Below the pieces are notes generated by a model. That model saw only the letters and a list, made by a program, of their open reading frames with translations, ran no database searches and was not told the DNA's origin. A stretch of 50,274 bases of DNA from Candidatus Levybacteria bacterium RIFCSPLOWO2_01_FULL_38_21 (lineage in GTDB: Bacteria > Patescibacteriota > Microgenomatia > Levybacterales > UBA12049): NCBI GenBank assembly GCA_001782475.1, contig MFOT01000007.1, positions 1 through 50,274 of the forward strand. Reading direction: 5' to 3'. Both the position numbers and the translations under genes were made by a program. Every line of letters begins with the position of its first letter. The stretch's first letter is position 1. This document shows positions 4,126-46,435 of this stretch, piece by piece.

Positions 4126-5217
4126 ATGTATAAATTACCGGATTTGAAAACTGCTCAAGTAAAAGGTAAAAAAGTTTTCTTAAGAACAGATATAGACGTG
4201 CCCCTATCGGAGAATGGGCAGATTGCAGATGATACAAGATTAGGAGAAGGACTTGAAACTTTGAACTTTCTTCTTAAAAACGGCGCAACGGTTTTTATCG
4301 GTGGACATCTTGGTCGTCCGGATGGTCTCAAAAGAGATCTAAGTGTTAAGCCAGTGACGAAATGGTACGCGAAAAAATTCAGAATTCAGAATTCAGAATT
4401 CAGAGTTCAGAGCATTGGAGGGTTCGAAGGCTTTCAAATCTCAGATAAACTATTTCTTCTTGAGAATTTGAGGTTTGATCCGGGAGAAGAATCTAGTCCA
4501 ACGACCCGCTCAGGACAAGTTTTTGCTCAAAAGCTTGCAAGCCTCGCAGATATATATGTAAATGATGCTTTTGCCTCATCACATCGTGCGCATGCATCAA
4601 TCGTAGGAGTTGCGAAACTTTTACCCCATTTTGCCGGTTTTATGCTTAAAAAAGAGGTAGAAACTCTGTCGGCCCTTCTTAATAATCCAAAAAGACCGCT
4701 TGCTGTTATCATTGGTGGCGCAAAGATAGAAACCAAACTTCCCTTGGTTGAAAAGATGCATCAGATTGCAGATTATGTTTTAGTGGGAGGACTAATTGCA
4801 GAAGAGACAAAAGTGCTTTTAAAAGTCCAGCATGAAAAAGTAAATCCGCCAGCTGGCGGAAGAAAGTCAGCACTTCTTGTCGCAGATTTAAACAGCGAAG
4901 AAACAGATATAACCCCAAAAGATGCGGAAAATTTTTTACAGATAATAAATCTTGCAAAAACAATTGTTTGGAATGGGCCGGTTGGAAAAACCGAGGGAAA
5001 CGAAGAAAATTTGGAAATTGGCACTGCAAAACTTGCCCGCGGAATTATTGACGCCGGAGTTTATTCGGTTGTTGGAGGAGGGGATACAATTGCGTATCTT
5101 AAAAAAATAGGACTTTTAGATAAATTTTCCTTTGTATCATCAGGAGGAGGCGCAATGCTCGAATTCCTTTCAGGCGAAAAATTACCAGGGATAGAGGCCT
5201 TGACAAGTTGTACGTAA
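4126..5217 (+). CDS. pgk: Phosphoglycerate kinase
   Basis: HLGRP, LLENLRF, YVNDAF, HRAHAS, GGAK, WNGP, GGGDT, SGGGAMLEFLSG. Confidence 0.97.
   Translation: MYKLPDLKTAQVKGKKVFLRTDIDVPLSENGQIADDTRLGEGLETLNFLLKNGATVFIGGHLGRPDGLKRDLSVKPVTKWYAKKFRIQNSEFRVQSIGGFEGFQISDKLFLLENLRFDPGEESSPTTRSGQVFAQKLASLADIYVNDAFASSHRAHASIVGVAKLLPHFAGFMLKKEVETLSALLNNPKRPLAVIIGGAKIETKLPLVEKMHQIADYVLVGGLIAEETKVLLKVQHEKVNPPAGGRKSALLVADLNSEETDITPKDAENFLQIINLAKTIVWNGPVGKTEGNEENLEIGTAKLARGIIDAGVYSVVGGGDTIAYLKKIGLLDKFSFVSSGGGAMLEFLSGEKLPGIEALTSCT
4376..4410 (+). repeat. In-frame heptamer array (AATTCAG)x4+1 in pgk
   Basis: Encodes FRIQNSEFRVQ. Confidence 0.9.
4496..4519 (+). repeat. Family A palindromic element (degenerate) in pgk
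   Basis: gtccaacgacccgctcaggacaag, peptide SPTTRSGQ. Confidence 0.75.
4845..4860. repeat. 16-bp perfect palindrome in pgk
   Basis: tccgccagctggcgga, peptide NPPAGG. Confidence 0.75.
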
Positions 5218-12558: not shown

Positions 12559-13653
12559 ATGGTTAGAATTGCAATAAACGGATACGGAAGAATAGGAAGA
12601 GTGGCACATAGGGTAATTTTGGAAAAGCACTCACAAGAAATTGATGTTGTCGCAATAAACGCAGGTTCCTCAACAGATATTAGAGGATGGATGTACCTCT
12701 TAAAGTACGATACTGCGTATCATACTTTAAATTCAAAATTCAAAATTCAAAATTCAAAATTAAACGAGGAGGAGAAAGTAGGAATATTAAAAGATGGGAT
12801 AGGCTACCTCATCATAAATGATAAAAAGATTCCTGTTTTTTCGCAGAAAGATCCGAGTCTTTTACCATGGAGAGATTTAAATATAGATGTAGTAATTGAG
12901 TCAACAGGACATTTTACCAAAGAGGAAAAATTAAAACTTCATCTTGATGCCGGCGCAAAGTTTGTTGTTTTATCTGCACCCATTAGAAAAGGAGACCCTT
13001 CGGCAAGCTCAGGGCAAGGGGTTCCGACATATATTTTATCTGTCAACGCAAAAGATTACAAAGGAGAAAAATTAATTAATAACGCATCCTGTACCACAAA
13101 CTGTATTACGCCGGTTGCAAAAGTAATTGTAGATAATTTTGGAGTAGAAAAGGCAATGATGACAACAATACACGGATATACATCAGATCAGCGACTTCAG
13201 GACGGAGGACACAAGGACTTAAGAAGAGCAAGGGCAGCAGCGGAAAATATAATTCCAACATCAACAGGTGCAACAATTGCAGCTTCGCAGGCATTGCCGG
13301 AACTAGCAGGTATCTTTGCCGGACTTGCAATAAGAGTACCGGTTGCAGTTGGGTCTCTTTCGGATTTTACATTTCTTCTTAAGAGAGAAACTACCAAAGA
13401 GGAAGTAAATGAGATATTCAAAAGAGAAGCGCAGAAAGAGGAATATCAAGGAATACTTGAGGTAACAGAAGATCCAATTGTGTCAAGTGATATAATAGGC
13501 AATCCCCATTCTGCAATTGTTGATCTCTCGCTTACTCAGGTTGTTTTAGGAAATATGCTTAAAGTTATTGCCTGGTATGACAATGAATACGGATATTGCA
13601 ACAGGTTAGTTGAAGAAGTTTTAATGGTAGGGAATAAAATTCCTAATTTCTAA
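12559..13653 (+). CDS. gap: Type I glyceraldehyde-3-phosphate dehydrogenase (start moved to ATG 12559)
   Basis: INGYGRIGR, NASCTTNC, IPTSTGA, WYDNEYGY; promoter TTGAAT-N17-TATTCT. Confidence 0.97.
   Translation: MVRIAINGYGRIGRVAHRVILEKHSQEIDVVAINAGSSTDIRGWMYLLKYDTAYHTLNSKFKIQNSKLNEEEKVGILKDGIGYLIINDKKIPVFSQKDPSLLPWRDLNIDVVIESTGHFTKEEKLKLHLDAGAKFVVLSAPIRKGDPSASSGQGVPTYILSVNAKDYKGEKLINNASCTTNCITPVAKVIVDNFGVEKAMMTTIHGYTSDQRLQDGGHKDLRRARAAAENIIPTSTGATIAASQALPELAGIFAGLAIRVPVAVGSLSDFTFLLKRETTKEEVNEIFKREAQKEEYQGILEVTEDPIVSSDIIGNPHSAIVDLSLTQVVLGNMLKVIAWYDNEYGYCNRLVEEVLMVGNKIPNF
12729..12763 (+). repeat. In-frame heptamer array (AAATTCA)x4+1 in gap
   Basis: Encodes NSKFKIQNSKL. Confidence 0.9.
12995..13018 (+). 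repeat. Family A palindromic element in gap
   Basis: acccttcggcaagctcagggcaag, peptide DPSASSGQ. Confidence 0.9.
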
Positions 13654-18914: not shown

Positions 18915-21377
18915 ATGAAACTTGATGGAATAAGGAATAAAGTATTTTTGGATAGATATGCTTTAAAGGGAGTTAAGGGAGAGTTGCTTGAGAAATCTCC
19001 TGAGGAAATGTGGAAAAGAGTAGCAAGGGGTATTGCCGAAAATGAAAAGAAAATTAAAAGAGCTTATTGGAAACAAAAATTTTATAGTGTAATGAAAGAC
19101 TTCAAGTTTGTTCCCGGCGGAAGAATCCTCTCCGGTGCGGGAACAGATTATGAGGTGACCTATTTCAACTGCTTTGTTATTCCATCTCCAAAAGATTCAA
19201 GAGAGGGAATTTTAGAATCCTTAAAACAGCTGGTAGAGATTCAATCAAGATCAGGGGGAGTTGGTCTTAATCTTTCATCTCTAAGACCAAGGGGTGCCCG
19301 TGTTAAAAAAGTAAATGGAACATCCTCCGGTCCTGTAACTTGGGCAGGATTATTTTCATACGCAACCCATGATGTTGTCCAGCAAGGGGGAACAAGACGA
19401 GGAGCAACTATGCTTATGCTTTGGGACTGGCATCCGGATATTGAAGAATTTATAACTGTAAAACAGGACCTCTCCAAAATAAACGGAGCAAATCTTTCCG
19501 TTTGTATCTCCGATAGTTTTATGGAAGCGGTTAAAAAAGACAGCGATTGGGATTTGGTTTATCCGGACTTAGATGATCCTAAATACGATGCAAAATGGAA
19601 CGGAGAAATAGATGAGTGGAAAAAACTAGGCGGAAAAATAAAAGTTTATAAAATTGTAAAAGCCCGATATCTTTGGAATCTAATCTGCGAAGCTGCCTGG
19701 AGAAGTGCTGAGCCTGGGCTTCATTTTCTTCAAAGGTCAAATAAAAGAAGCAACACCTGGTATTTTGAAAAACTAATCGCCACAAATCCCTGCGGAGAAC
19801 AACCCCTTGGTGCTTGGGCTGTTTGTAATCTCGGTGCAATGAATTTGGCGGCCTATGTTAAAAATGAAAAATTCGATTATGAGAGCTTTTCGGAAGATGT
19901 AAAAGTTGCAATAAGATTCTTAGACAACGTTATAGATAAAACTTATCACTTCTTTAAACAGAACGAAAAAGTAGCCAAAGACATCAGAAGAACCGGACTT
20001 GGCATTATGGGCTTGGGAGATGCGCTTATTAAAATGAAAGTACGCTACGGATCAGATGAATCTCTTAAGATTATAGATAAAATTTTTGAGACTTTAAGAA
20101 ATAGCGCCTATGATGCATCTTCTGATATTGCAAAAGAAAAAGGAGCATTCCCAAAGTTCAATAAAGCAAAGTATTTGGAAGGTTACCATATTAAAGAGTT
20201 GACACCAGAAATTCAAAAAAAGATTGCAAAGCAGGGCATAAGAAATGCTGTTCTTTTAACTATTGCACCAACTGGAACAACTTCGCTTCTTTCGGGAGTG
20301 ACATCGGGGATTGAGCCGGTTTATGAATTCACCTTTATAAGGCGGGATAGAACCGGAGAGCACATTATGTATCATCCGTTTTTTGAAGAGTGGAAAAAAG
20401 AGAACCCTTCGGCAGGCTCAGGGCAAGTCCCGGATAGGCCTGATTATTTTGTCTGCGCAAATGATCTGACTCCACCTGAGCATGCGCAAGTTCAGGCAGT
20501 TGCGCAAAAATATGTAGATGCATCTATTTCAAAAACAGTGAATGCTCCAAACTCTCACACAGTCGAGGATGTAAAAACACTTTATATGGCAGCTTATGAC
20601 TTAGGACTTAAAGGGGTAACTTATATGAGAGATGGAAGTCGAGAGGGAGTTCTTTCAAGGGTTGAAGATAAAAAAGATCCTTCGGCAAGCTCAGGACAAG
20701 AGAAAATTACCAAACCGGTTATTCCACGCCCCATGCAGCTTGAAGGAGTGACTTATCAAATTCAAACACCTGTTGGAAAAACATACATTACTATTAATCA
20801 TAACGAGAACAAAGAGCCGTTTGAGGTTTTTATTACTATTGGAAAGTCAGGCTCTGATGTTGCGGCAATGGCAGATGCATTAGGCAGAATTATTTCCGTA
20901 AACCTTCGTCTCTTAGGAGGACTTTCTCCAAGAGAAAAAATAAGGGAGATTGTAGCCCAGCTTGCAGGAATTGGCGGAGCAAGAAGTGTCGGGTTTGGAA
21001 AAGATAAGGTGAGATCTTTACCAGACGGTGTTGCAAAAATACTTGCAATGCATTTTGGTTTCGCCGTAAATGGACAGGTTGAGGATAAAAATACTCAGGC
21101 CAATGGACAAGTCCAGCCCCAAGTATTAGCAAATGGGAACGGACCCTTTAATGGAAAAGCAGAAATTAAAACAGAAAACGAAAAAACCCCTGGGGTTGTT
21201 GAGATGCAACAGCTGGCACTGGTTGGAAAAGGAAGCGGACTTATGGCAGAAGACAGTAGTCCGTATGAGATAGCTGGAACAAGCCTTTATGATCTTTGTC
21301 CTGAATGCGGGGCGGGGAGTCTGGCATATGAGGAAGGATGCAGAAAATGCTACAGTTGTGGTTATTCAGAGTGCTAA
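18915..21377 (+). CDS. nrdJ: Adenosylcobalamin-dependent (class II) ribonucleotide reductase with C-terminal TSCPD/zinc-ribbon region
   Basis: FVPGGR, NCFV, QGGTRRGA, TNPCGEQ, CNLG, APTGT, ISKTVN, CPECG...EGC..C..CGYSEC; no beta subunit nearby. Confidence 0.93.
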   Translation: MKLDGIRNKVFLDRYALKGVKGELLEKSPEEMWKRVARGIAENEKKIKRAYWKQKFYSVMKDFKFVPGGRILSGAGTDYEVTYFNCFVIPSPKDSREGILESLKQLVEIQSRSGGVGLNLSSLRPRGARVKKVNGTSSGPVTWAGLFSYATHDVVQQGGTRRGATMLMLWDWHPDIEEFITVKQDLSKINGANLSVCISDSFMEAVKKDSDWDLVYPDLDDPKYDAKWNGEIDEWKKLGGKIKVYKIVKARYLWNLICEAAWRSAEPGLHFLQRSNKRSNTWYFEKLIATNPCGEQPLGAWAVCNLGAMNLAAYVKNEKFDYESFSEDVKVAIRFLDNVIDKTYHFFKQNEKVAKDIRRTGLGIMGLGDALIKMKVRYGSDESLKIIDKIFETLRNSAYDASSDIAKEKGAFPKFNKAKYLEGYHIKELTPEIQKKIAKQGIRNAVLLTIAPTGTTSLLSGVTSGIEPVYEFTFIRRDRTGEHIMYHPFFEEWKKENPSAGSGQVPDRPDYFVCANDLTPPEHAQVQAVAQKYVDASISKTVNAPNSHTVEDVKTLYMAAYDLGLKGVTYMRDGSREGVLSRVEDKKDPSASSGQEKITKPVIPRPMQLEGVTYQIQTPVGKTYITINHNENKEPFEVFITIGKSGSDVAAMADALGRIISVNLRLLGGLSPREKIREIVAQLAGIGGARSVGFGKDKVRSLPDGVAKILAMHFGFAVNGQVEDKNTQANGQVQPQVLANGNGPFNGKAEIKTENEKTPGVVEMQQLALVGKGSGLMAEDSSPYEIAGTSLYDLCPECGAGSLAYEEGCRKCYSCGYSEC
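20404..20427 (+). repeat. Family A element in nrdJ, copy 1
   Basis: acccttcggcaggctcagggcaag, peptide NPSAGSGQ. Confidence 0.9.
20677..20700 (+). repeat. Family A element in nrdJ, copy 2
   Basis: atccttcggcaagctcaggacaag, peptide DPSASSGQ. Confidence 0.9.
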
Positions 21378-21411
21378 CCAGCAACTAGCAACTAGTTTCT
21401 AGTGACTAGTT
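21376..21411. repeat. Heptamer array after nrdJ stop
   Basis: aaccagc aactagc aactagt ttctagt gactagt. Confidence 0.75.
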
Positions 21412-21425
21412 TTTGACAATTAAAT

Positions 21426-21494
21426 TTGGAGTTCCGAAGTCTTTGAAAATAAGACACTGTGCCGCAACCGTTAGAGTCGGGTCGAAGGCTCCAA
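21426..21494 (+). ncRNA. Compact cobalamin riboswitch (candidate)
   Basis: ttggag/ctccaa closing stem; GAA-gtctt-TGAAAAT-aagac T-loop hairpin; ACTGTGCCGCAACCGT and GAGTCGG (CCG/CGG in place of usual CTG/CAG); between two B12-related genes. Confidence 0.72.
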
Positions 21495-21537
21495 GCTCAA
21501 ATTCCTCCTTCGAGCAAAGGAAAAAGAAACAACTTTT

Positions 21538-21564
21538 AACCTTCTTGATCGAGAAGGTTTTTTT
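21538..21564 (+). terminator. Intrinsic terminator/attenuator before pduO
   Basis: aaccttct-tgatcg-agaaggtt followed by T run. Confidence 0.75.
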
Positions 21565-21620
21565 ATGCTTCGACAAGCTCAGCATAGCCCGAAGCATAGT
21601 GAGCAAGGAGTCGAACTATG
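21565..21620. repeat. Pair of family A elements (forward + reverse) ending in pduO ATG
   Basis: atgcttcgacaagctcagcat; catagt-gagcAAGGAGtcga-actATG. Confidence 0.8.
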
Positions 21621-22148
21621 CCAATTTATACAAAAGCAGGGGATAAAGGACAAACAGGACTTTTTTCTGGAAAAAGAGTTTCAAAAGCAAACCCTCGGAT
21701 AGAGGCAATCGGTGCAGTGGATGAATTAAACAGCACGATAGGGTTCGCCCTATCGCAAATCCGAAATCCGAAATCCGAAATCCGAAAAGAATTAATAAAG
21801 ATTCAAAATGATCTATTTGAAATCGGCGCTGCGTTGGCAAATCCCAAACAGAAGATTAATCTTTCAAATAGAACAAAGGAATTCGAGAATATGATTGATA
21901 AAATGACTAAAGAATTGCCTCCGCTTTTTAACTTTGTTCTTCCTGGAGGAGGAATGGTAGGTTCATCTTTGCATATCGCAAGAACAGTTTGCCGTCGAAC
22001 GGAAAGAAGAATTGTTGAGTTATCTAAAAAAGAAAAAGTTCAAGGCGACCTCATTATTTATATAAATAGACTTTCCGATCTTTTTTTAACTATGTCAAGA
22101 TATATAAATTATAAAGAAAAACGGAAAGAGATTATTTGGAAAACCTAG
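21618..22148 (+). CDS. pduO: ATP:cob(I)alamin adenosyltransferase, PduO type
   Basis: IYTKAGDKGQT, GAVDELNS, FVLPGG, ARTVCRRTER, INRLSD. Confidence 0.93.
   Translation: MPIYTKAGDKGQTGLFSGKRVSKANPRIEAIGAVDELNSTIGFALSQIRNPKSEIRKELIKIQNDLFEIGAALANPKQKINLSNRTKEFENMIDKMTKELPPLFNFVLPGGGMVGSSLHIARTVCRRTERRIVELSKKEKVQGDLIIYINRLSDLFLTMSRYINYKEKRKEIIWKT
21757..21784 (+). repeat. In-frame perfect heptamer array (AAATCCG)x4 in pduO
   Basis: Encodes QIRNPKSEIR. Confidence 0.92.
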
Positions 22149-22160
22149 AGAGGAATTTTT

Positions 22161-23282
22161 ATGAGAACAGAAGCATATACAGTAGGTTTTGATACAAAAA
22201 ATTATCATGCGCCAATGCCTGATAATTATTCGCAAGATGAGATTTATCGAAGAAGAGAAAGCAATATTGGTAATAATATAATAAGATATTTAGGCGAATA
22301 TAGACTGGGAGTAAAGTATGATGAGTTTCATTATAATCTTGAGCAAGATGCTGAAAGTGGCGACTTTTTTCTTTCATCTCCCCACGCAGATCCAGGACCC
22401 ATATTAAATATCTATAGAAAGGCAATTAGTTACAAAGAAGAAAGAGGACTTCCGGTAGATAGAGAAGTAGCAGAATGTTTAGGATTCCAAAAACTGCAAG
22501 GAGGACTTGCAGATGCTCAAGAAGGAACATTAATTTTATGGGTTAGTCCTCCTGGACCAAAGGCTGATGGATATGGGGATCACAGTTTTACATTTATTGG
22601 GCAAGTAGTAAAAGACTCAGATGGAGGAAAAAGATTAAGAGTGATTCCTTACAGAAATGTTTTATCTTTGGAGGAGCATAAAAACTATTTGAAATATTTC
22701 AATGAAGATGCCCAACACTATGATAAAGATACAGACTTCCTAGCAAATCCAGTTGTCATTGAGCAATCAGAATCTATTCAAACACCAGACGACATAATAA
22801 GTTTTATCGGAGAGACTGAAAGGTTCAATATTGAATGGCGTAATAAGCTTACCCCCTTAATAATGCCTTTGGTAGGGGGATTTATACAGCTTGTTAGGGA
22901 AAAGGCATCGGATAAAGATTTGCTAAAAGCAAGACATGCAATTGAAAACTTTGTATTAGAGAAAAAAGATTACATCTTAGACAGGGACAGGAGTCCTCAG
23001 TTAGTTTTTGAAAACCAACCTCGGGAAGTTTTCGAAAGGTATGGAAACACTACTCCGCCAATTGTTGGCGGAAGCTGTGGGTTTAGCGCGAGCGGAGAGG
23101 ACAGTTCTATTTTGAGCATTAATCTTAAAGATAAATATGGACCAAGAATTTTTAGTTGTCCGGAGTGTGGAAAGACCAATATAAGACCCGAAAACGAACT
23201 CCTTTCCAATTGTCAGCATTGCGGCAGCGATAAAGTTTCCTGCTGTGATGTTGATAAATCTTCTTTTGTTCTTGCTGCATAA
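22161..23282 (+). CDS. Hypothetical protein with C-terminal zinc ribbon
   Basis: 373 aa; WVSPPG; CPECG...CQHCG. Confidence 0.75.
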   Translation: MRTEAYTVGFDTKNYHAPMPDNYSQDEIYRRRESNIGNNIIRYLGEYRLGVKYDEFHYNLEQDAESGDFFLSSPHADPGPILNIYRKAISYKEERGLPVDREVAECLGFQKLQGGLADAQEGTLILWVSPPGPKADGYGDHSFTFIGQVVKDSDGGKRLRVIPYRNVLSLEEHKNYLKYFNEDAQHYDKDTDFLANPVVIEQSESIQTPDDIISFIGETERFNIEWRNKLTPLIMPLVGGFIQLVREKASDKDLLKARHAIENFVLEKKDYILDRDRSPQLVFENQPREVFERYGNTTPPIVGGSCGFSASGEDSSILSINLKDKYGPRIFSCPECGKTNIRPENELLSNCQHCGSDKVSCCDVDKSSFVLAA

Positions 23283-23341
23283 AGAACTTGTTAGGCAAAT
23301 ATAATGACACGTTTCCTAATTCGTGCTATCATGAATTAGAT

Positions 23342-23776
23342 ATGGATCCGACTAAAGATCAAACAGATCAACCGACAGTTGTCCCTCCTAATCAGGATGT
23401 AGTTTCACCCATTGCTCCATCTGTTGGCGGCCCTTCTAAAGAAGTAGAACCGCCATCGCATGACTTGATAAGCTCATCCGAAAAAAGACCGGAAATTTCT
23501 GCCGAATTAGCAGAAATAGGAGTAAAAGAAGTTTCGGAAACTCCACAGTTGACTCAAGAACATACGGAAGCTGGGATAAGAGTTTCCCAAAGGCCGGTAG
23601 AGCCAGTAACAACTTCCGTGCCAGTAAGTTTTAAATCACCACTCACCCAAGCGGAAATGGCCATAGCTAAAAAAAGTAGGATCTCGGATGCGATTCACTG
23701 GCTTGCAGCAACAATATTAAGGCAAGTTAAAAGATCAAGATTTGATCAGAAGCAATCTTTGCCGAAACCGATATGA
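23342..23776 (+). CDS. Hypothetical low-complexity protein (start moved to ATG 23342)
   Basis: P/S/E-rich, ends in ..DAIHWLA..ILRQ; overlaps next gene. Confidence 0.7.
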   Translation: MDPTKDQTDQPTVVPPNQDVVSPIAPSVGGPSKEVEPPSHDLISSSEKRPEISAELAEIGVKEVSETPQLTQEHTEAGIRVSQRPVEPVTTSVPVSFKSPLTQAEMAIAKKSRISDAIHWLAATILRQVKRSRFDQKQSLPKPI

Positions 23777-26151
23777 CGTTAGAGACATTTTCACCTGCAA
23801 ATATAATAAATTTCTTTGTCCTATTCTTTCTGGGCATTTTTTCCGCAATTTTAATATTACTTTTGATTTTTCTTTTGGGGTACGGACTTATTCTTTGGTT
23901 TAGAAACAGAAATAGGGAAAAAGAATCTTTAGACTCAACTCTTCTTGAAGTTTCAATGCCGCGGGATAACGAAATTAAAATTGATGCCGCAGAACAAATG
24001 TTTGCAAGCTTTGCGTCACTTCGAAAAGGAAACAGATTGTCTTTTTTAAATTCTCAGCCGCATATTTCTTTTGAGATCGTTGGAATGCCTGAGGATATCC
24101 GTTTTTACGTGAATACCCCAAATAAAATTAAAGATTTTGTAGAAAAACAAATTAACGGCGCATATCCTGAGGCAGACATAAAAGAGGTAGAACAATCTCT
24201 TTTTACAAAAGAGGGCTATTCTATTGGAAATGAGTATAATATTTTTCCAAGAGAAGGTAAGGTCGCATTTACCAGTTTAAGACTTAAATTCTCAAATTAT
24301 ATGCCTATTAAGGTATTTAAAGACTTACCAACAGATCCTCTTTCCTCGCTTACCTCTGTTTTGGCAAAAATGGCTCACGGCGAAGGCGCCGCTATTCAAA
24401 TAATGCTTAGTCCTTCGGATTCCAGATGGAAAAAACAGGGCAGAACTTACATTTCAAAAATAAAAAAGGCTGAATCAAATCCCGAAACCGCAAAATACTC
24501 AGCAGACCCCAAGGAACTTGAAGGAATAGAGAATAAAATCGGAAAACCGGGGTTTAGTATTGTTATAAGAATAGTAGTTTCTTCGGTAACTTCAGAAGCT
24601 GCCCAAGCCCATTTAAATAATATTGTAAACAGCTTTAGTCAGTTTGACGGATTAAATTCATTTACGAGAAATTCACACAGATTCAAGGGCCTTTTTATGC
24701 ATGATTTTATCTACAGATATATGCCAATAAGAGGTCAAACCTCTGTTTTAACAAGCGAGGAGCTGACAACTATATTCCACTTTCCCAATAAAAGCGTTGA
24801 AACTCCTCATATACACTGGGTTACTGCAAAAAGAGCACCAGCTCCTATACAAATTTCACAATCCGGGCTTTTTCTTGGGAAAAGTAAATATAGAGGAATA
24901 GAAAAGCCTATTTATATTGATCTTGATGATCGAAGGCGCCATATGTATGTAATTGGAAAGACAGGCACTGGTAAATCCGAATTTTTAAAAGCTATGATAA
25001 TGCAGGATATAAAAAACGGAGAAGGTCTTGCGGTTATAGATCCTCACGGAGATTTAATCGATGACGTACTGCGACTTACTCCTTCTAAAAGAGCAGAGGA
25101 TGTTATATTGTTTGATCCATCAGATACCCAAAGGCCCATGGGTTTAAATATGCTTGAGGCAAGAACTGAGGAGCAAAAACATTATATTGTCTCATCAATA
25201 ATTGGCTTGATGTATAAACTTTTTGACCCGCACCAAACAGGTATTATCGGCCCTCGGTTTGAACATGCAATAAGAAACGCGATGTTAACCGTGATGTATG
25301 AAAAAGGAAGCACATTTGTCGAGGTTGTAAGAGCTCTGACCGACGCATCTTATGTTCAGGAGATTTTGCCAAAAGTTCAGGATCCGATCATTAGACGTTA
25401 TTGGACAGATCAGATTGCTCAAACATCAGACTTTCATAAATCAGAAGTCTTAGATTATATTGTTTCAAAATTTGGAAGATTTGTAACGAATAAAACAATT
25501 AGAAATATTATTGGACAATCTTATAGCTCATTCGATTTTAGAAAAGTTATGGATGAGGGAAAAATTTTGTTAATTAATTTATCAAAAGGAAAGATAGGGG
25601 AGGAAAACTCAAATTTCCTAGGCCTTGTTCTTGTGCCGAAAATCTTAGTTGCCGCAATGTCCAGGCAGGATGTGCCGATTGATCAAAGGCGGGATTTCTT
25701 CTTATATGTTGATGAATTTCAAAACTTTGCAACACCGGATTTTGCCCAAATATTATCTGAAGCACGAAAATATAGACTTAATTTAATTGTTGCAAATCAG
25801 TTTATTGGGCAGATGGAAGAGGATGTTAAAAATGCAATATTTGGAAACGTAGGGTCAATTATTTCATTTAGAGTTGGTGTTACCGATGCAAATTATCTTC
25901 AGCACGAGTATCAGCCGGTTTTTACCGAGGCAGATTTGATAAATGTTGAAAGATTTAATACTTATGTTAAAACTATTGTAAAAGGTGAACCGGTTACACC
26001 TTTTTCTATGGATTTAACGCGCGATATGAGTGAAGAGAAAAAACTTATGAATCCAAGAGTCTCGGAGCTTATCCGCGAACTTTCAAGACTTAAGTACGGA
26101 AAAGATATCATGCAAGTTGAAGCGGAGATTGCAAAAAGAGCCAAATTATAA
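23773..26151 (+). CDS. Membrane-anchored TraG/TraD/VirD4-like (HerA/DUF87-related) ATPase
   Basis: RRRHMYVIGKTGTGKS Walker A, IDPHGDL, YVDEFQNF Walker B, SEARKY, ANQF. Confidence 0.88.
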   Translation: MTLETFSPANIINFFVLFFLGIFSAILILLLIFLLGYGLILWFRNRNREKESLDSTLLEVSMPRDNEIKIDAAEQMFASFASLRKGNRLSFLNSQPHISFEIVGMPEDIRFYVNTPNKIKDFVEKQINGAYPEADIKEVEQSLFTKEGYSIGNEYNIFPREGKVAFTSLRLKFSNYMPIKVFKDLPTDPLSSLTSVLAKMAHGEGAAIQIMLSPSDSRWKKQGRTYISKIKKAESNPETAKYSADPKELEGIENKIGKPGFSIVIRIVVSSVTSEAAQAHLNNIVNSFSQFDGLNSFTRNSHRFKGLFMHDFIYRYMPIRGQTSVLTSEELTTIFHFPNKSVETPHIHWVTAKRAPAPIQISQSGLFLGKSKYRGIEKPIYIDLDDRRRHMYVIGKTGTGKSEFLKAMIMQDIKNGEGLAVIDPHGDLIDDVLRLTPSKRAEDVILFDPSDTQRPMGLNMLEARTEEQKHYIVSSIIGLMYKLFDPHQTGIIGPRFEHAIRNAMLTVMYEKGSTFVEVVRALTDASYVQEILPKVQDPIIRRYWTDQIAQTSDFHKSEVLDYIVSKFGRFVTNKTIRNIIGQSYSSFDFRKVMDEGKILLINLSKGKIGEENSNFLGLVLVPKILVAAMSRQDVPIDQRRDFFLYVDEFQNFATPDFAQILSEARKYRLNLIVANQFIGQMEEDVKNAIFGNVGSIISFRVGVTDANYLQHEYQPVFTEADLINVERFNTYVKTIVKGEPVTPFSMDLTRDMSEEKKLMNPRVSELIRELSRLKYGKDIMQVEAEIAKRAKL

Positions 26152-26201
26152 TTCTTCCTTGCCCTCGGAGTTCTTCTTTGCTAAAATTAGCATGATTAGA
26201 A

Positions 26202-26274
26202 GGAGCTGTAGTTCACCGGTCAGAACGCGATCCTTATAAGATCGATGTAGATGGTTCGACTCCATCCAGCTCCA
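26202..26274 (+). tRNA. tRNA-Ile (anticodon UAU)
   Basis: Acceptor GGAGCTG/CAGCTCC-A; anticodon arm cgatc-ctTATaa-gatcg; T arm gatgg-ttcgact-ccatc; no encoded CCA. Confidence 0.88.
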
Positions 26275-26290
26275 CATGGGAAAAAATGGT

Positions 26291-26992
26291 ATGAAGAGTA
26301 AGGTGGTTTTGGCAGTTGGGGCACACCCCGATGATATAGAATTTGGAGCTTCTGGAACCATAGCAAAATGGGCGCAAGAGGGAGCAGAGTGTTATTATCT
26401 AATCTGTACAGACGGAAGCAGGGGATCCACAGATCCAAAGATGACTCATAAAAGACTTGTTCAGGTTAGAAGAAAGGAGCAGGAGGGAGCAGCAAAAATT
26501 TTGGGCCTTAAAAAGGTCTATTTCTTAGACTATACAGATACTCTTTTAACTGCAGACTACGCTCTAAGACGCGACATAGCAAAAATTATAAAAATCATAA
26601 AACCGGATATAGTGGTTACCATGGACCCAACTTTTTACTACTCCGAACAGTTTAATTTTATAAATCATACGGATCATAGAGCCGCAGCCCTGGCTACTAT
26701 GGATGCATGTTACCCCTTGGCTCGGGACAGATTAACATTTCCTGAACATGAAAAAGAGGGCTTAACGCCACATCGCGTCGAGGAGATTTGGTTTATTGGT
26801 TTTGATAAAACTAATTTGCTGATAGATATTACAGACACTTTTGTTAAAAAAATTGAAGCTATTACTATGCACAAGAGTCAATTTGAAAACATGGAGCATG
26901 TTATAAAAAGAGTAGAGGAGAGAGCAAGATATTTCGGAATTACAAAGGGTTGTAAATACGCAGAAAACTTCGTTCGGGTTGAGCTTTTTTAA
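26291..26992 (+). CDS. PIG-L/LmbE family deacetylase
   Basis: AHPDD, TDGSRG, RRKEQ..A, HTDH, HKSQ. Confidence 0.9.
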   Translation: MKSKVVLAVGAHPDDIEFGASGTIAKWAQEGAECYYLICTDGSRGSTDPKMTHKRLVQVRRKEQEGAAKILGLKKVYFLDYTDTLLTADYALRRDIAKIIKIIKPDIVVTMDPTFYYSEQFNFINHTDHRAAALATMDACYPLARDRLTFPEHEKEGLTPHRVEEIWFIGFDKTNLLIDITDTFVKKIEAITMHKSQFENMEHVIKRVEERARYFGITKGCKYAENFVRVELF

Positions 26993-27849
26993 AGATCTGA
27001 AAGAGTTGATGTTTCTTTGCCTCTTTCCCCAACATAATTAAGATATCTTTCGGTTGTAGAAAGTCTTTTATGTCCTAAAATTTTAGAAAGTAAAACCAAA
27101 GAAGCACCCTGTTTTAAGTGATGGGCAACAAATGTGTGTCTTAAATCATTTACCCTTGCATCTTTTACTTCTGCCAATCGGAAATACCTTTCCATAGAAG
27201 TTCTGATATTTCTTACCAAAAATGGTCTCCCAGATTTTGTGATAAAAAGATGACTGTCCTTTGTCTTTGGTCTTATTTCCAGATATTTTTGGAGCGCCTC
27301 CTGCGCCCTTTTATTAAGCGGAATTTCTCTTTCTTCGTGTTTTTCGTATGCTGCTATGTGCAAAGAATCCTTTTTACTATCGGAAACCCTGAGGTTCGCC
27401 AGTTCTCCAATTCTTATCCCTGTTTGAAGTAAAAGTTCAATGATTGCAAACATTCTGGGGTCGTTTCTTGCTGCGTCTCGCAAGGCTCTATATTCGGTTG
27501 GCGTGAGTATTCTGGGTGGTGCAAGCTGATATCTTGGGTGGGCGACTAAAAGAGAAGGGTCATCGGTAACATATTCGTTGATTTTAAGAAATCTATAAAA
27601 AGTTCGAGTAGAATTAATCTTTCGTGAAATTGATTTTGGGGTGTAACCGTCTTTCTGCATTTTTGCCAAAAATGCCTCTATGTCCTCTTTGGTTACTTCG
27701 TGAATTTGATTTTTCGCAACCTCTTCCAAAAACGAAATAAGTTGCTCTATATCTTTGCCATATGCTACAATTGTAGAGTTCGAATGCTTTTTGTTTTTAA
27801 GAAAATTTTTAAACTCTTGGTGGGCATCCCGGAGCTTTATGGTTTTCAT
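26989..27849 (-). CDS. XerC/XerD-like tyrosine recombinase
   Basis: SAM-like N-domain; TGIRIGEL, NDLRHTF (N in place of first H), LGH..LSTTERY. Confidence 0.88.
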   Translation of the reverse strand: MKTIKLRDAHQEFKNFLKNKKHSNSTIVAYGKDIEQLISFLEEVAKNQIHEVTKEDIEAFLAKMQKDGYTPKSISRKINSTRTFYRFLKINEYVTDDPSLLVAHPRYQLAPPRILTPTEYRALRDAARNDPRMFAIIELLLQTGIRIGELANLRVSDSKKDSLHIAAYEKHEEREIPLNKRAQEALQKYLEIRPKTKDSHLFITKSGRPFLVRNIRTSMERYFRLAEVKDARVNDLRHTFVAHHLKQGASLVLLSKILGHKRLSTTERYLNYVGERGKETSTLSDL

Positions 27850-27895
27850 ACTTCGATTTCACTCAGTATGATCCTGAGCAGAGTCGAAGGATCAT
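27847..27895. repeat. Pair of family A elements ending in the recombinase ATG
   Basis: Minus strand atgatccttcgactctgctcaggat-catact-gagtgaaatcga-agtATG. Confidence 0.8.
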
Positions 27896-27963
27896 ACAAA
27901 AGTGATGTCCTATAATATCAATAAAATTAACTTTAGTCAAGATGGGAATATTGAATACTTAGT

Positions 27964-28305
27964 ATGAAAAAAATCTTATTTATTGTTGCTATTGTAGCTT
28001 CAATTTTTATTATTAATAGCCTTGTTCGGTCTATCTACGATTTATGGAAAAAGCAAGATTTAATAACTCAAGCCCAAAAAGAACTAGAGAGAGAAAAACA
28101 GGAAAATTATGACCTAAAGTCTAAATTATCCAAGGCTCAAAATAATCAATTCGTAGAAGAGGAGGCTAGAAATAAATTATTGCTTGTAAAACCGGGCGAG
28201 GAATCGGTGATTATTCCTCAAGATTTACTTTCATCCCAAAGTTCGCAAAGAAAAAATATTGATACGCACCCAAACTTTAGAAAATGGTGGGATTTATTCT
28301 TCTGA
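27964..28305 (+). CDS. Septum formation initiator (FtsB/DivIC-like)
   Basis: N-terminal TM, coiled coil, FVEEEARNKLLLVKPGE; ends PNFRKWWDLFF. Confidence 0.82.
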   Translation: MKKILFIVAIVASIFIINSLVRSIYDLWKKQDLITQAQKELEREKQENYDLKSKLSKAQNNQFVEEEARNKLLLVKPGEESVIIPQDLLSSQSSQRKNIDTHPNFRKWWDLFF

Positions 28306-29910: not shown

Positions 29911-29938
29911 GCAAAGACTCTCTCCTATCAAAGCCTTG

Positions 29939-30010
29939 TGCCAACGGCAGGATTCGAACCTGCGACCCGACGCTTATGAAACGTCTGCTCTGCCCCTGAG
30001 CTACGTTGGC
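29939..30010 (-). tRNA. tRNA with CAU anticodon (probably elongator Met)
   Basis: GCCAACG/CGTTGGC-A; gacgt-ttCATaa-gcgtc; gcagg-ttcgaat-cctgc. Confidence 0.9.
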
Positions 30011-30068
30011 TCAGCTTATATTTTAACAGTTGGACAGATTGAGGTCAAATTGGTATAATAAACCTACA

Positions 30069-30137
30069 CGCGGGGTAGTGTACAGTGCACATGAGGCTCA
30101 TAATCTCATAGGCTAGGCGCAACTCCTAGCCCCGCAA
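30069..30137 (+). tRNA. Initiator-like tRNA-Met (CAU), atypical
   Basis: CGCGGGG/CCCCGCA-A with C1:A72 mismatch; tgagg-ctCATaa-tctca; ctagg-cgcaact-cctag; TATAAT at 30054. Confidence 0.75.
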
Positions 30138-30223
30138 CCGATTCGACGCGCCTTTCGCTTCTCTCAAGGCTTGCTCACGGCAAGCTCTTGCGCGGCGAAT
30201 TGGTGCTGAACCTGCCGAAGCAC
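30138..30223. repeat. Two family A elements (long-loop forward, short reverse) upstream of GIY-YIG gene
   Basis: ccgattcgac[25 nt]gctcacggcaag; gtgctgaacctgccgaagcac. Confidence 0.7.
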
Positions 30224-41464: not shown

Positions 41465-42631
41465 GTGAAAATAGCTATAGTACACGACTATATAAAGGAA
41501 TACGGGGGAGCGGAGAGGGTTTTGGAAGCTCTTCATGAAATTTTTCCTGATGCGCCGGTCTATACCACAGTTTTTTTACCTGAATTTCTTGGGCCTCACG
41601 AAAACAGATTTAAAAACTTTAAAATAAAGACTTCGTTTCTTCAATATTTACCATTTAAGGAAAAACTAATAAGTCCGATTCGTGTAATCGCGCCATTGGT
41701 CTTTAAATCTTTCAATTTCTCGGGCTTTGACGTTGTTATTGTTTCTGCAACAGGAGCCTATTCTCCAAATGGAAAATGGAAAATGGACAATGGAAAATTT
41801 CCAATCCATATATGTTACTGCCATACTCCTCCAAGATATCTTTATGGTTTTGCAACAGCCAGGGAGTGGAAGAATAATTTAATTTTCCGAGTTTTTGGAG
41901 AGCTTGCAAATCATTTTTTAAGGTTAGTTGATTATAAAAGCTCCCAAAATGTAGATTACTTTATTGCAAATTCAAAAAATGTTGCAGGGAGGATCAAGAA
42001 GTTTTATAGAAGAGATGCTGTTGTAATTTACCCGCCGGTTGACACTAATTCAAAATTCAAAATTCAAAATTCAAAATTGAAAGTCAAAAGTCAAAAGGAT
42101 GGATATTTTCTGGCGGGGGGAAGGATAGCACGGCCAAAAAACATTGAGCTGATAATCAAAACTTTTGAAAAACTTAAACTTCCTCTTAAAATCTTCGGGC
42201 GAAGTTTTGGAGGCCTCGATATCGAAAGCGAATCACGAATCACGAATAACGAATCACGAATCGAATATCTTGGAGAAGTAAGCGATGAAGATAAGTACGA
42301 GCTTATGAGAAATGCTACGGCATTTATTTTTGCTTCAGTTGATGAGGATTTCGGCATTACTCCGGTTGAGGCAATGAGCGTTGGAACACCGGTTATCGCG
42401 TATCGATCGGGTGGAGTAGTAGAATCGGTGGTTGACCCTTCGACACGCTCAGGGCAAGCGGTGACGGGAATATTTTTTGAAGAATTATCGCTCGAGAGCT
42501 TGAGTAAAGCAATCAAACAATTTAACAATCTAACAATCAATCCGCAGGATTGCATTTCCCAAGCCCAAAAATTCTCAAAAGAGAGGTTTAAGAGAGAAAT
42601 AAAAGAGTTTGTGGGGAAAATATATGCCTGA
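41465..42631 (+). CDS. GT4 family glycosyltransferase (start moved to GTG 41465)
   Basis: KIAIVHDY...GGAERV, YCHTPPRYLY, VIYPPV, EDFGITPVEAM..GTPV. Confidence 0.93.
   Translation: MKIAIVHDYIKEYGGAERVLEALHEIFPDAPVYTTVFLPEFLGPHENRFKNFKIKTSFLQYLPFKEKLISPIRVIAPLVFKSFNFSGFDVVIVSATGAYSPNGKWKMDNGKFPIHICYCHTPPRYLYGFATAREWKNNLIFRVFGELANHFLRLVDYKSSQNVDYFIANSKNVAGRIKKFYRRDAVVIYPPVDTNSKFKIQNSKLKVKSQKDGYFLAGGRIARPKNIELIIKTFEKLKLPLKIFGRSFGGLDIESESRITNNESRIEYLGEVSDEDKYELMRNATAFIFASVDEDFGITPVEAMSVGTPVIAYRSGGVVESVVDPSTRSGQAVTGIFFEELSLESLSKAIKQFNNLTINPQDCISQAQKFSKERFKREIKEFVGKIYA
41767..41794 (+). repeat. In-frame heptamer array (AAATGGA)x4
   Basis: Peptide NGKWKMDNG. Confidence 0.88.
42047..42095 (+). repeat. 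In-frame heptamer array (AATTCAA)x4 plus 3 degenerate units
   Basis: Peptide NSKFKIQNSKLKVKSQ. Confidence 0.9.
42229..42262 (+). repeat. In-frame heptamer array (CGAATCA)x5
   Basis: Peptide ESRITNNESRI. Confidence 0.9.
42435..42458 (+). repeat. Family A element in glycosyltransferase
   Basis: acccttcgacacgctcagggcaag, peptide DPSTRSGQ. Confidence 0.9.
42510..42538 (+). repeat. In-frame 8-mer array
   Basis: caatcaaa caatttaa caatctaa caatc, peptide AIKQFNNLTI. Confidence 0.75.
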
Positions 42632-45580: not shown

Positions 45581-46435
45581 ATGAATAAATTCGATCCTAA
45601 GGTTTTTAAAAAATTGTATAGACCGCCGTCTAATTCTCACAAAGGGCAAAATGGAAAACTAATGATTATCGGAGGATCAAAGCTTTTTCACGCCGCATCT
45701 CTTTGGTCTTTGAAGGTTGCATCAAGAATAGTAGATATGGTTTTTTATTCATCCATTTCCGAAAACAACCAGATAGTCCAAAAGGCAAAAGAGGAATTTA
45801 GAGACGGAATTGTGGTACCAAGAGATAGAATCGATGATTATATAAATGAGGTAGACTGCATTTTAATAGGTCCCGGACTTCCAAGAGAGGAGGGGCAGGA
45901 GAAGGGGGATGATGATACAAAAGGCCTTACAGAGAAACTGCTTAAGAAATATCCCAACAAAAAATGGGTTATAGACGGAGGTTCTCTGCAAATGATGGAT
46001 TTGGAGATTATCCCGCGCAGTTCAATCTTGACTCCCCACAAAGGAGAGTTTGAGGTGCTCAAATTAAAAATTAAAAATGAAAAATTAAAAACGACAATTC
46101 AAAATTTAAAATTAGAAGAACAAGTTAAGATTTTTGCCGAAGAGTTCAATTGTATTGTACTTCTGAAGGGAAAAGAAGATATCATTTGCTCCCCCAGTGA
46201 ATGTTTAATTGTTGAAGGGGGGAATGCTGGTATGACAAAGGGAGGAACAGGAGATGTTTTGGCAGGTCTTGTCGCGGCTTTATATTGTAAAAACCAAGCT
46301 TTTCTTTCTGCTTGCGCAGGGTCTTCCATCAACAAAAAGGCAGGAGACAGCCTCTATAAAAAAGTAGGTTATTATTTTAATGCGTCCGATCTAGTCGACG
46401 AAATCCCAAAGGCGATGAAAAAATTAATCCTCTGA
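45581..46435 (+). CDS. nnrD: ADP-dependent NAD(P)H-hydrate dehydratase
   Basis: HKGQNG..IGGS, IGPGL, LTPHKGEF, LLKG, GGTGDVLAG. Confidence 0.92.
   Translation: MNKFDPKVFKKLYRPPSNSHKGQNGKLMIIGGSKLFHAASLWSLKVASRIVDMVFYSSISENNQIVQKAKEEFRDGIVVPRDRIDDYINEVDCILIGPGLPREEGQEKGDDDTKGLTEKLLKKYPNKKWVIDGGSLQMMDLEIIPRSSILTPHKGEFEVLKLKIKNEKLKTTIQNLKLEEQVKIFAEEFNCIVLLKGKEDIICSPSECLIVEGGNAGMTKGGTGDVLAGLVAALYCKNQAFLSACAGSSINKKAGDSLYKKVGYYFNASDLVDEIPKAMKKLIL
46061..46116 (+). repeat. In-frame heptamer array in nnrD
   Basis: aaattaa aaattaa aaatgaa aaattaa aaacgac aattcaa aatttaa, peptide KLKIKNEKLKTTIQNLKL. Confidence 0.8.

Follow-up and report, generated by a model that had tools for sequence, protein, structure and literature searches.

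Why should a short hairpin repeat end, at two unrelated genes, exactly on the start codon? The question is raised by a 50,274-nucleotide stretch of DNA (from here on, the window) of Candidatus Levybacteria bacterium RIFCSPLOWO2_01_FULL_38_21 (contig MFOT01000007.1), in which the genes for a PduO-type cobalamin adenosyltransferase and a XerC/D-like tyrosine recombinase are each preceded by a forward and a reverse copy of one hairpin family, here called Family A. This family, defined from a repeat search of the sequence (repeat family D2), is made up of repeated hairpins whose 13-nt loop, TTCGRCARGCTCA, is conserved and whose short arms vary yet stay complementary; CAAG often follows them. We found that the two modules, and others like them in the genome, are insertions at start codons. 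On balance we favour the reading that they are a mobile doublet resembling a REPIN (a doublet formed from REPs, which are repetitive extragenic palindromes) that targets start codons, and that its loop supplies, or was selected to supply, initiation signals.

Both modules follow the order T - [sA, loop A, sA'] - T' - [sB, loop B, sB'] - T, in which T carries the start codon, T' is its complement in the middle, and hairpins A and B are built on loops A and B. At pduO, the features are as follows.

21538..21564 (+), terminator-like hairpin with T-run of the upstream gene, 9-bp stem, directly adjoining the pduO ATG in relatives
21565..21568 (+), 5' copy of T (ATGC), where pduO originally started and which serves as 5' arm of hairpin A, from the sequence and the orthologues
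21569..21581 (+), loop A with the Family A core TTCGACAAGCTCA, from the sequence
21582..21599 (+), middle arms T' (GCAT at 21582-21585, spacer AGCCCGAA, GCATAG at 21594-21599), complementary to the ATGC on either side, from the predicted fold
21600..21617 (+), loop B TGAGCAAGGAGTCGAA (21600-21615, a reverse-type core) followed by CT, from the sequence
21618..22148 (+), gene for the PduO-type cobalamin adenosyltransferase, Pfam PF01923 over residues 3-163

At the Xer-like gene, the corresponding features lie on the other strand.

27912..27940 (-), native promoter (TTGACT, 17 nt, TGnTATTAT), found in most relatives read
27892..27897 (-), 5' copy of T (GTATGA), the original start position, which starts a 10-codon mini-ORF (open reading frame) ending at TGA
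27872..27891 (-), core of hairpin A, consisting of TCC, loop TTCGACTCTGCTCA (27888-27875) and GGA, from the sequence
27866..27871 (-), middle arm T' (TCATAC), able to pair with either copy of GTATGA
27850..27865 (-), loop B TGAGTGAAATCGAA (27865-27852) followed by GT, with TGAAAT 6 nt before the ATG (27849-27847)
26989..27849 (-), gene for the XerC/D-like tyrosine recombinase, Pfam PF00589/PF02899, its ATGA being the 3' copy of T

The ATGC of the pduO gene doubles as 3' copy of T and as 3' arm of hairpin B, and loop B holds AAGGAG 7 nt before the ATG (21618-21620). This layout, a forward copy, a reverse copy and an ATG ending the stem with AAGGAG 7 nt before it, had been described in a first-pass annotation of the window, and reading of the sequence confirmed it. 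The statement that the Xer-like gene shares the arrangement (forward hairpin, reverse-type hairpin, ATG at the stem end) was likewise found to be correct.

The same annotation had noted that the arms of Family A differ but stay complementary. We searched the genome to which the window belongs (G000; 788 kb in 28 contigs, GC about 37%). A first loop pattern, TGAGCNNNGTCGAA with 2 mismatches allowed, gave 8 matches against 9.7 expected, which is the level of chance. The strict Family A loop matched 48 times and a relaxed one (at most 2 substitutions) 153 times; a perfect flanking stem of at least 3 bp was present in 49 of the latter, compared with a mean of 9.1 and a maximum of 19 in 1000 shuffles of the 3' flanks among the copies. 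The copies carried 17 arm types, and all the arm pairs listed earlier (gccc/gggc, gtcc/ggac, atcc/ggat, atgc/gcat, gtgc/gcac, catagt/actatg and catact/agtatg) are indeed present, so the observation holds for the genome as a whole.

A pattern search of G000 for hairpins ending in ATG gave 17 matches, 14 of which were retained (short loop, at least 4 of 5 arm pairs, ORF of 93-494 aa). The other three (C5, C10, C14), with spacers of 23-44 nt and ORFs of 14-48 aa, were dropped as chance matches. The modules precede the genes for PduO, the XerC/D-like protein, RecO, YceG, RuvA, a PMT_2 glycosyltransferase, adenylate kinase, ribosomal protein L17, FtsX, an RmlA-like nucleotidyltransferase, a DUF11 protein and three proteins without a Pfam match. 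The plan given above is common to all 14: two small hairpins, 45-75 bases in total, with 41-49 nt between the T repeats. T is (N)ATGA in 13 modules and ATGC in pduO, and T' is the complement (TCAT, or GCAT in pduO). The fourth base of the gene is A in 13/14 modules, compared with 406 of the 840 crude gene calls of G000. Since this pattern demanded arm complementarity, the G000 set by itself is no test of covariation; the cross-phylum set described below was free of that demand.

The downstream ATG is the real start codon, as the Pfam domains begin at residues 1-5. With the crude gene calls (840 genes, 90.5% coding), the 6387 ATGA sites of G000 fell at called starts (316), between genes (595) or inside genes (5476). 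All 14 modules are on starts, compared with 35% of the non-interior ATGA sites (P ~4e-7); the genome-wide count of ATG-terminating copies that had been proposed thus shows an overlap with start codons far above chance. In 8 of the 14 modules the 5' TGA ends a long upstream ORF (115-673 codons); in these, a stop and a start that overlapped in ATGA have been separated by the element. Of the doublets in G000, those of the ATGA type form a specialised subfamily, which is also the most abundant.

In the predicted folds T' pairs either with the upstream T, which extends hairpin A, or with the downstream T, which makes hairpin B and buries the ATG. With a long hairpin between loops A and B there are three predicted, mutually exclusive folds, and the z-scores of the modules are modest (-2.0 to -2.7). 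For the Xer module, the structure with the predicted minimum free energy is that of loop A paired with loop B in one long hairpin (-15.2 kcal/mol, z = -2.2).

Filled and empty orthologous sites were compared for 9 of the 14 genes, in three genomes of the same genus (G001-G003) and in other relatives. For all nine, an empty site with one ATGA or ATGC and no hairpins was found in close relatives. Four inserts were present in G000 only and five were common to G000 and G002, the latter genome carrying further nested copies. At pduO, the site was empty in 5/5 relatives, reading ...TTTTT|ATGCCAAT (ATGGCAAT in G022) without an insert; the native signal there is an SD-like (Shine-Dalgarno-like) GAGG within the 3' arm of the terminator. 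RuvA was filled in G000 and empty in 4/4 relatives. Its empty site in G002 reads ...GAGAAAAT|ATGATAGG, where the ATG overlaps with TGA, the stop of ruvC, and the filled site of G000 consists of AATATGAT, 41 nt and again AATATGAT, with ATCATATT in the middle (a T of 8 nt). RecO was empty in 3/3, the repeated part being ATGA only, and L17 in 5/5. YceG, Adk and FtsX were filled in G000 and G002 and empty in G001, G003, G015 and G022; RmlA-like was filled in G000 and G002, empty in G015 and G022, and degenerate in G003. An orthologue of the Xer-like gene was found in 40/41 relatives. Its site was filled in G000 and G002 (where it is expanded) and empty in G001 (...TGATATTATAGGATATCACTTTTAT|ATGAAAG, in short ...CACTTTTAT|ATGAAAG), and most other relatives have kept its promoter without an insert.

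The single ATGA or ATGC of the empty sites means that the element is an insertion at the start codon. One arm, the gene's own (N)ATGA or ATGC, existed beforehand in 9/9 genes, which answers the filled/empty comparison proposed earlier. The statement that the arms covary with local sequence was borne out for one part of the element: the ATG-bearing arm tracks that sequence and flanks the insert at either end, its complement lying between the two. Most of the remaining arm bases, YCC/GGR in hairpin A and the two bases beside CAT/ATG in hairpin B, belong to the element and mostly differ from the native flank (the bases next to T are unlike it in, for example, RecO, Adk, L17 and PduO). YCC/GGR arms are also found in most single copies of Family A, which fits a master sequence rather than target-derived arms. 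The turnover of inserts within one genus and the nested secondary copies in G002 point to recent activity.

To this comparison belong some observations on the relatives. In G002, the modules L002, L045, L052 and L061 are expanded by nested or tandem extra hairpins, and the Adk and FtsX modules of that genome carry the same 40-nt pair, [TCC-loop-GGA][TTC-TGAGTGAAATCGAA-GAA], in the same relative place (after CATnn). In G017, which belongs to another genus, an independent and differently built Family A insertion (L011) lies between the conserved promoter and the ATG of the Xer-like gene; it is made up of ATCC-loop-GGAT and a stemless reverse core. In G000 itself, an intergenic doublet at C14:29325-29368 has the T-T'-T plan with T = ATTGA, and its 3' copy overlaps with a TTGACT box located roughly 45 nt upstream of a tRNA gene.

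The composite was also sought across phyla, with one genome per species and a pattern of fixed loop ends, GG, CAT, TGA, GAA and ATG, which gave at least 121 loci; the counts that follow are among the matches listed. These come from many Patescibacteria classes, Gammaproteobacteria, Lysobacterales, Acidobacteriota, Binatia, Omnitrophota, Elusimicrobiota, Actinomycetota, Syntrophobacteraceae, Deltaproteobacteria and Opitutaceae. The frame of the ATG was open to the end of the flank in 90/121, versus 0 and 13 for the two remaining frames. The 5' arm was NTGA in 111/121 (ATGA 83, GTGA 12, CTGA 9, TTGA 7), and in 44 of these 111 the TGA closes a long ORF. This arm was the full complement of sA' plus T' in 77 cases and had one mismatch in 34. 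Stem B covaries: its two free pairs (sB/sB') were both Watson-Crick in 104/121, versus 32 (maximum 47) in shuffles, GG/CC, AG/CT, CC/GG, AC/GT, AT/AT and GC/GC being the commonest types. In a hand count of the 17 imperfect cases, the mismatches were G-T (13), A-C (2) and other (3), an excess of G-T that suggests a sense-strand bias. The T copies are 44-49 nt apart without a 3-nt periodicity, so that the insert is not read as protein.

Termination and reinitiation at a mini-ORF as a general rule was rejected, no conserved design being found: of the 84 listed modules with a 5' ATG, the mini-ORF stops 3-32 nt before the start codon in 53, passes it in another frame in 22, stays open in 6 and is in-frame in 3. 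Three loci of one genome, G228 (L105, L109 and L111), are copies of a longer repeat containing CATACTGAGCTTGACGAAGTATG with no long ORF after it; this repeat is a different element using the same hairpin.

The middle arm covaries with the start codon on which the element sits. Among the matches listed, T' was TCAT with the gene's ATGA in 115/115 cases; the six other T' comprised CCAT with ATGG (2) and four single mismatches. When metagenomes were scanned for T' = [GC]CAT only, 51 loci were obtained, which form 22 clusters. In 16 of the clusters all three segments had changed together (5' arm NTGG, T' CCAT, gene ATGG); CCAT occurred with A on both flanks in 3, with G in the 5' arm only in 2, and in another combination in 1. 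Together with the ATGC/GCAT/ATGC of pduO, these counts uphold the earlier claim that arms covary with local sequence. A change of the fourth base after insertion is possible, as comparison of L287 with L249 and L261 shows.

Loop B, just ahead of the ATG, is enriched for initiation signals that fit the lineage. As a control, the reverse complement of loop A was put in the position of loop B. Among the matches listed, a TAnnnT hexamer 5-7 nt before the ATG was present in 32/121 loops B versus 8/121 controls, and an SD-like tetramer in 31/121 versus 7/121; the sums of 63 and 15 differ with Fisher P = 3e-11, assuming that no module has both signals. Where the GC of the locus was below 0.5, -10-like signals were found in 32/85 and SD-like ones in 9/85, and where it was 0.5 or higher in 0/36 and 22/36, respectively. 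Parcubacteria-type loops (TGATAnAATAGAA-CC-ATG) hold an extended -10 box whose distance to the ATG is exactly 6 nt. The same distance is found in G000: upstream of 613 ATG genes, TATAAT-like hexamers (at least 5/6) peak with 54 genes at a gap of 6 nt, against 20, 19 and 24 genes at gaps 7-9 and about 5 elsewhere, and SD-like motifs are barely enriched (79 vs 54). This genome thus appears to rely largely on leaderless-type promoters. Loop B has this 6-nt geometry in RuvA (TATAAT), YceG and the 93-aa gene (TAAAAT), FtsX (TAGAAT) and the DUF11 gene (GATAAT). A scan for -35-like hexamers at 16-18 nt found none inside the modules, the native Xer promoter and two weak sites on the opposite strand being the only matches, and the promoter reading is therefore carried by the -10 box by itself. 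A literature search on leaderless promoters in bacteria of the candidate phyla radiation (CPR) returned nothing on them, the available parts of PMC12641178 and PMC12641261 included.

Taken together, we consider a start-codon-targeting doublet the likelier explanation of these modules. It would consist of one forward and one reverse Family A-type hairpin inserting at (N)ATGA start codons, and would leave behind the order of parts given at the outset, T' being shared by both stems. With T on both sides, the upstream gene keeps its TGA stop and the downstream gene its ATG. Mobilisation may take place on single-stranded DNA by a Y1/HUH enzyme of the RAYT (REP-associated tyrosine transposase) or IS200 type, with T' as a guide paired to the tetranucleotide of the target. 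Loop B could then drive the displaced gene, in CPR bacteria by a -10 box 6 nt before the ATG (giving a leaderless mRNA) and in high-GC phyla by an SD. Hairpin B, which would bury the ATG, is presumably of importance on the sense strand, be it in read-through transcripts or in single-stranded DNA of the top strand.

Candidates for such an enzyme are encoded in G000 by five Y1_Tnp (PF01797) ORFs, which are RAYT-like, have HUH motifs and measure 196-235 aa.

C24:5046-5387 (-), RAYT-like Y1_Tnp ORF
C20:4689-4913 (+), RAYT-like Y1_Tnp ORF
C2:28086-28343 (+), RAYT-like Y1_Tnp ORF
C28:14287-14523 (+), RAYT-like Y1_Tnp ORF
C1:12636-12779 (+), RAYT-like Y1_Tnp ORF

They share the motifs PNHxHFLL and SRYIHxNP, and CACCCCnGGGGTG palindromes and a TTGACACC box flank every one of them. 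Relatives have 1-9 Y1_Tnp matches; five in the 0.79 Mb of G000 is unusual, RAYTs being described as single-copy. The strict composite was found in 8 genomes among the 41 relatives, with 7 copies in G000, 6 in G005 and 1-2 in the others.

Several points weigh against the doublet as set out here. The flanks of the five RAYT-like genes are CACCCCnGGGGTG and not Family A, so that a RAYT flanked by its cognate repeat is not found in this genome. Y1_Tnp matches occur in 7/8 module-bearing and 17/33 module-free relatives, which is no clear link, and G017 has a module and no Y1_Tnp match. Doublets with other arms are also present in ordinary intergenic DNA of G000. Among the cross-phylum matches listed, 31/121 have no long ORF within the 200-nt flank, the 5' CTGA of 9/121 is explained neither by simple duplication of ATGA nor by a replaced GTG or TTG start, and stem A has no G-T bias (G-T 6, A-C 7, other 14). 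That pattern was fixed at GG, CAT, TGA, GAA and ATG, which leaves only the free positions to be counted, and kin share copies by descent. Finally, the young RecO insert has neither a -10 box nor an SD in loop B (CTTGCC), which implies that the signal is not always present at birth.

The complementarity of T' to both flanks can be obtained in more than one way, and the filled/empty pairs fit duplication and an element-borne end alike. The first-pass annotation had proposed that arms are copied from the target by fold-back synthesis. In its present form, with every insertion making its arms through fold-back (snap-back) synthesis or through template switching, and T' templated on the target, we regard this as unlikely. 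The direct, inverted, direct order of T-T'-T is what it predicts, and the 8-nt T of RuvA (AATATGAT / ATCATATT / AATATGAT) agrees with it, as does L288, which is near-identical to the G000 module C22:38022 except at T/T'/T. The CCAT variants, too, favour templating: they are scattered over several otherwise ordinary element subtypes, with five sB types among the CCAT-ATGG loci listed. On the other hand, an unbiased templated T' should mirror the usage of the fourth base (A in 406/840 genes of G000, about 48%), whereas TCAT/ATGA makes up 115/121 (95%) of the matches listed; this excess, and the three clusters in which CCAT stands between ATGA flanks, as expected from mutation of a guide, favour the guide. 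Moreover, sB' is mostly unequal to the native flank. Compensatory evolution of all three T segments in place was considered less likely than either guide or templating. Fold-back is one of several routes to T-T'-T.

Two further explanations were weighed. It is conceivable, and we would rank it below the mobile doublet, that the cassette chiefly benefits its host as an expression module: it would be a leaderless promoter (or SD) that is portable and brings its own start codon, mobility being secondary. It might equally tentatively be supposed that it was kept for uncoupling or re-driving ruvA, adk and ftsX, hairpin B serving as an insulator by burying the ATG of read-through transcripts. The roughly four-fold excess of -10 or SD motifs over the loop A control, with a motif type that follows lineage GC, speaks for such a function, and so do the agreement of the -10 geometry with the leaderless peak of G000, the position of 14/14 modules at starts of housekeeping genes, and the G-T bias of stem B, which points to folding of the sense strand. 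Against it, about half of the loop B sequences among the matches listed have neither signal, that of the young RecO insert included, the same genes are expressed without the module in close relatives, and the nested secondary insertions in G002 look like selfish spread. That the hairpins are translation-control structures of the attenuator or thermometer type which evolved in place, and are not insertions, we regard as very improbable. An ATG in the 3' arm with an SD or -10 box in the loop, and three mutually exclusive folds including the hairpin between loops A and B at -15.2 kcal/mol, would suit such a model. The clean filled/empty pairs in 9/9 genes, also within one genus, contradict it as an origin, the same loop cores recur at unrelated genes in many phyla, and the fold z-scores are modest. 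As to the second option of the first-pass annotation, selection as translation-control hairpins, the loop ahead of the ATG does show an enrichment of initiation signals; control of translation by the hairpin itself is something we infer only, and as the sole origin of the arms it fails at the empty sites. The earlier observation is confirmed, and its interpretation is partly supported.

The start-codon doublet was compared with known systems. With REPs and REPINs it shares the nature of a short palindromic repeat present many times per genome (Family A has 48 strict and 153 relaxed matches), an inverted doublet as the replicative-looking unit, which can fold into one long hairpin (forward and reverse loops 9-10 nt apart), G-T pairs in the stems suggesting sense-strand folding, and the presence of RAYT-like genes in G000. 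REP ends can donate stop codons to flanking ORFs (Di Nocera 2013, PMC3733652), and the composite ends donate a stop codon in the same way. REPINs are reported as randomly placed in extragenic space (Bertels & Rainey 2011, PMC3116915), in contrast to the ATGA-type doublets, 14/14 of which are on start codons; the term 'start codon' has 0 occurrences in the available parts of these two papers. In addition, in the present doublet the loop is conserved and not the stem, and the middle arm is the complement of the tetranucleotide at its flanks. A GTAG/CGTC tag is absent, the flanks being (N)ATGA / TCAT or, after single copies, CAAG, and the same loop cores recur across phyla.

Elements of the IS200/IS605 group (IS608, ISDra2) and their derivatives among the MITEs (miniature inverted-repeat transposable elements) have hairpin ends and a strand-specific chemistry on single-stranded DNA, and choose their target by pairing with an internal guide. 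They insert next to a fixed tetra- or pentanucleotide that pairs with the guide inside the element. Guide pairing of this kind would explain the covariation of T' with both flanks; unlike in that group, the same tetranucleotide stands on both sides here and is the start codon, 41-49 nt lie between the repeats, and no transposase is linked. The Correia elements (CREE/NEMIS) of Neisseria are 100-155 bp long with long terminal inverted repeats and a TA duplication, and are not known to be specific for start codons. The doublet resembles these and other promoter-bringing MITEs as a small non-autonomous insert beside genes that can supply promoter elements and be co-transcribed as a hairpin. Terminal inverted repeats as in a MITE of that type are absent beyond the loop cores, the repeat being the start-codon tetranucleotide. 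By sequence strings (with primer coincidences among the matches listed) and by concept, no description of a start-codon doublet was found in the literature, supplements being outside the search. New here are the filled/empty proof of insertion, the T-T'-T rule with its covariation, the splitting of ATGA overlaps and the lineage-matched loop signals.

A wider proposal, which we put forward with considerable doubt, is that of a cross-phylum minimal mobile DNA of about 45 nt that homes to start codons via the 4-nt guide T', splits ATGA junctions and installs initiation signals (leaderless -10 in CPR, SD elsewhere). If true, it would be a natural, retargetable device for operon splitting and promoter delivery, would read the start/stop overlap signal of bacterial operons, and could be a driver of the spread of leaderless starts in ultra-small bacteria. 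REPs, REPINs and MITEs are usually described as extragenic passengers; the doublet is of the same general kind and sits, in many phyla, on the start codon itself, with a middle arm that matches the start-codon tetranucleotide. It would offer a testable case of sequence-guided insertion at translation starts, and a way for genes in operons to gain their own leaderless promoters in CPR bacteria, the gene expression signals of which are, to our knowledge, almost unstudied. It would also be a warning for annotation, as the upstream ATG copy would lead to false starts and mini-ORFs and the hairpins would inflate the number of 'hypothetical' peptides. The natural pairs of filled and empty alleles (ruvC-ruvA, secY-adk and ftsE-ftsX junctions) are suited to a comparison of translational coupling with leaderless initiation.

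Single copies of Family A are present in the window as well, and three of them were compared with the genomes of the same genus.

12996..13019 (+), single hairpin (CCC loop GGG CAAG), a 24-nt in-frame insert absent from G001, G002 and G003
20405..20427 (+), single hairpin, an 18-nt in-frame insert common to G001 and absent from G002 and G003
20678..20700 (+), single hairpin in a variable linker of the same gene as the preceding copy

The empty sites at 20408 already end in CCC or TCC, which makes the alignment there ambiguous. As in-frame inserts of 18 and 24 nt within genes, the single hairpins resemble the Rickettsia palindromic elements and intragenic REPs; the composite form differs from these in being untranslated (T spacing without 3-nt periodicity).

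Other identities for the hairpins were also considered. Hairpin A is not followed by a T-run and was rejected as an intrinsic terminator. A hammerhead-like core in loop B (CTGAGTA...GAA) was rejected too, as it misfits the CUGAUGA consensus and has no Rfam match. With Rfam 15 at the gathering threshold, the whole window gave two tRNA matches and nothing else; with E up to 1, the best matches of the pduO and Xer modules scored 17.5-20.1 bits against cut-offs of 55-90, and these sub-threshold matches were taken as chance.

In short contigs of four DNA runs over 21300-28100, breaks occur at repeats, and none of the contigs spans either module, filled or empty. Inside the pduO ORF lies a 7-nt tandem repeat, AAATCCG x4 (21755-21786); the very high summed depth of this stretch in metagenome contigs indicates a widespread repeat. 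Other 7-nt tandem repeats of the window are of the AATTCAA type (repeat family D1), at 4376, 12716-12764, 42047-42095 and 46062-46130. ARAGORN placed a tRNA-Ile with anticodon TAT at 26202-26275, an uncommon bacterial way of reading AUA, and two tRNA-Met(CAT) genes are located at 29938-30139.

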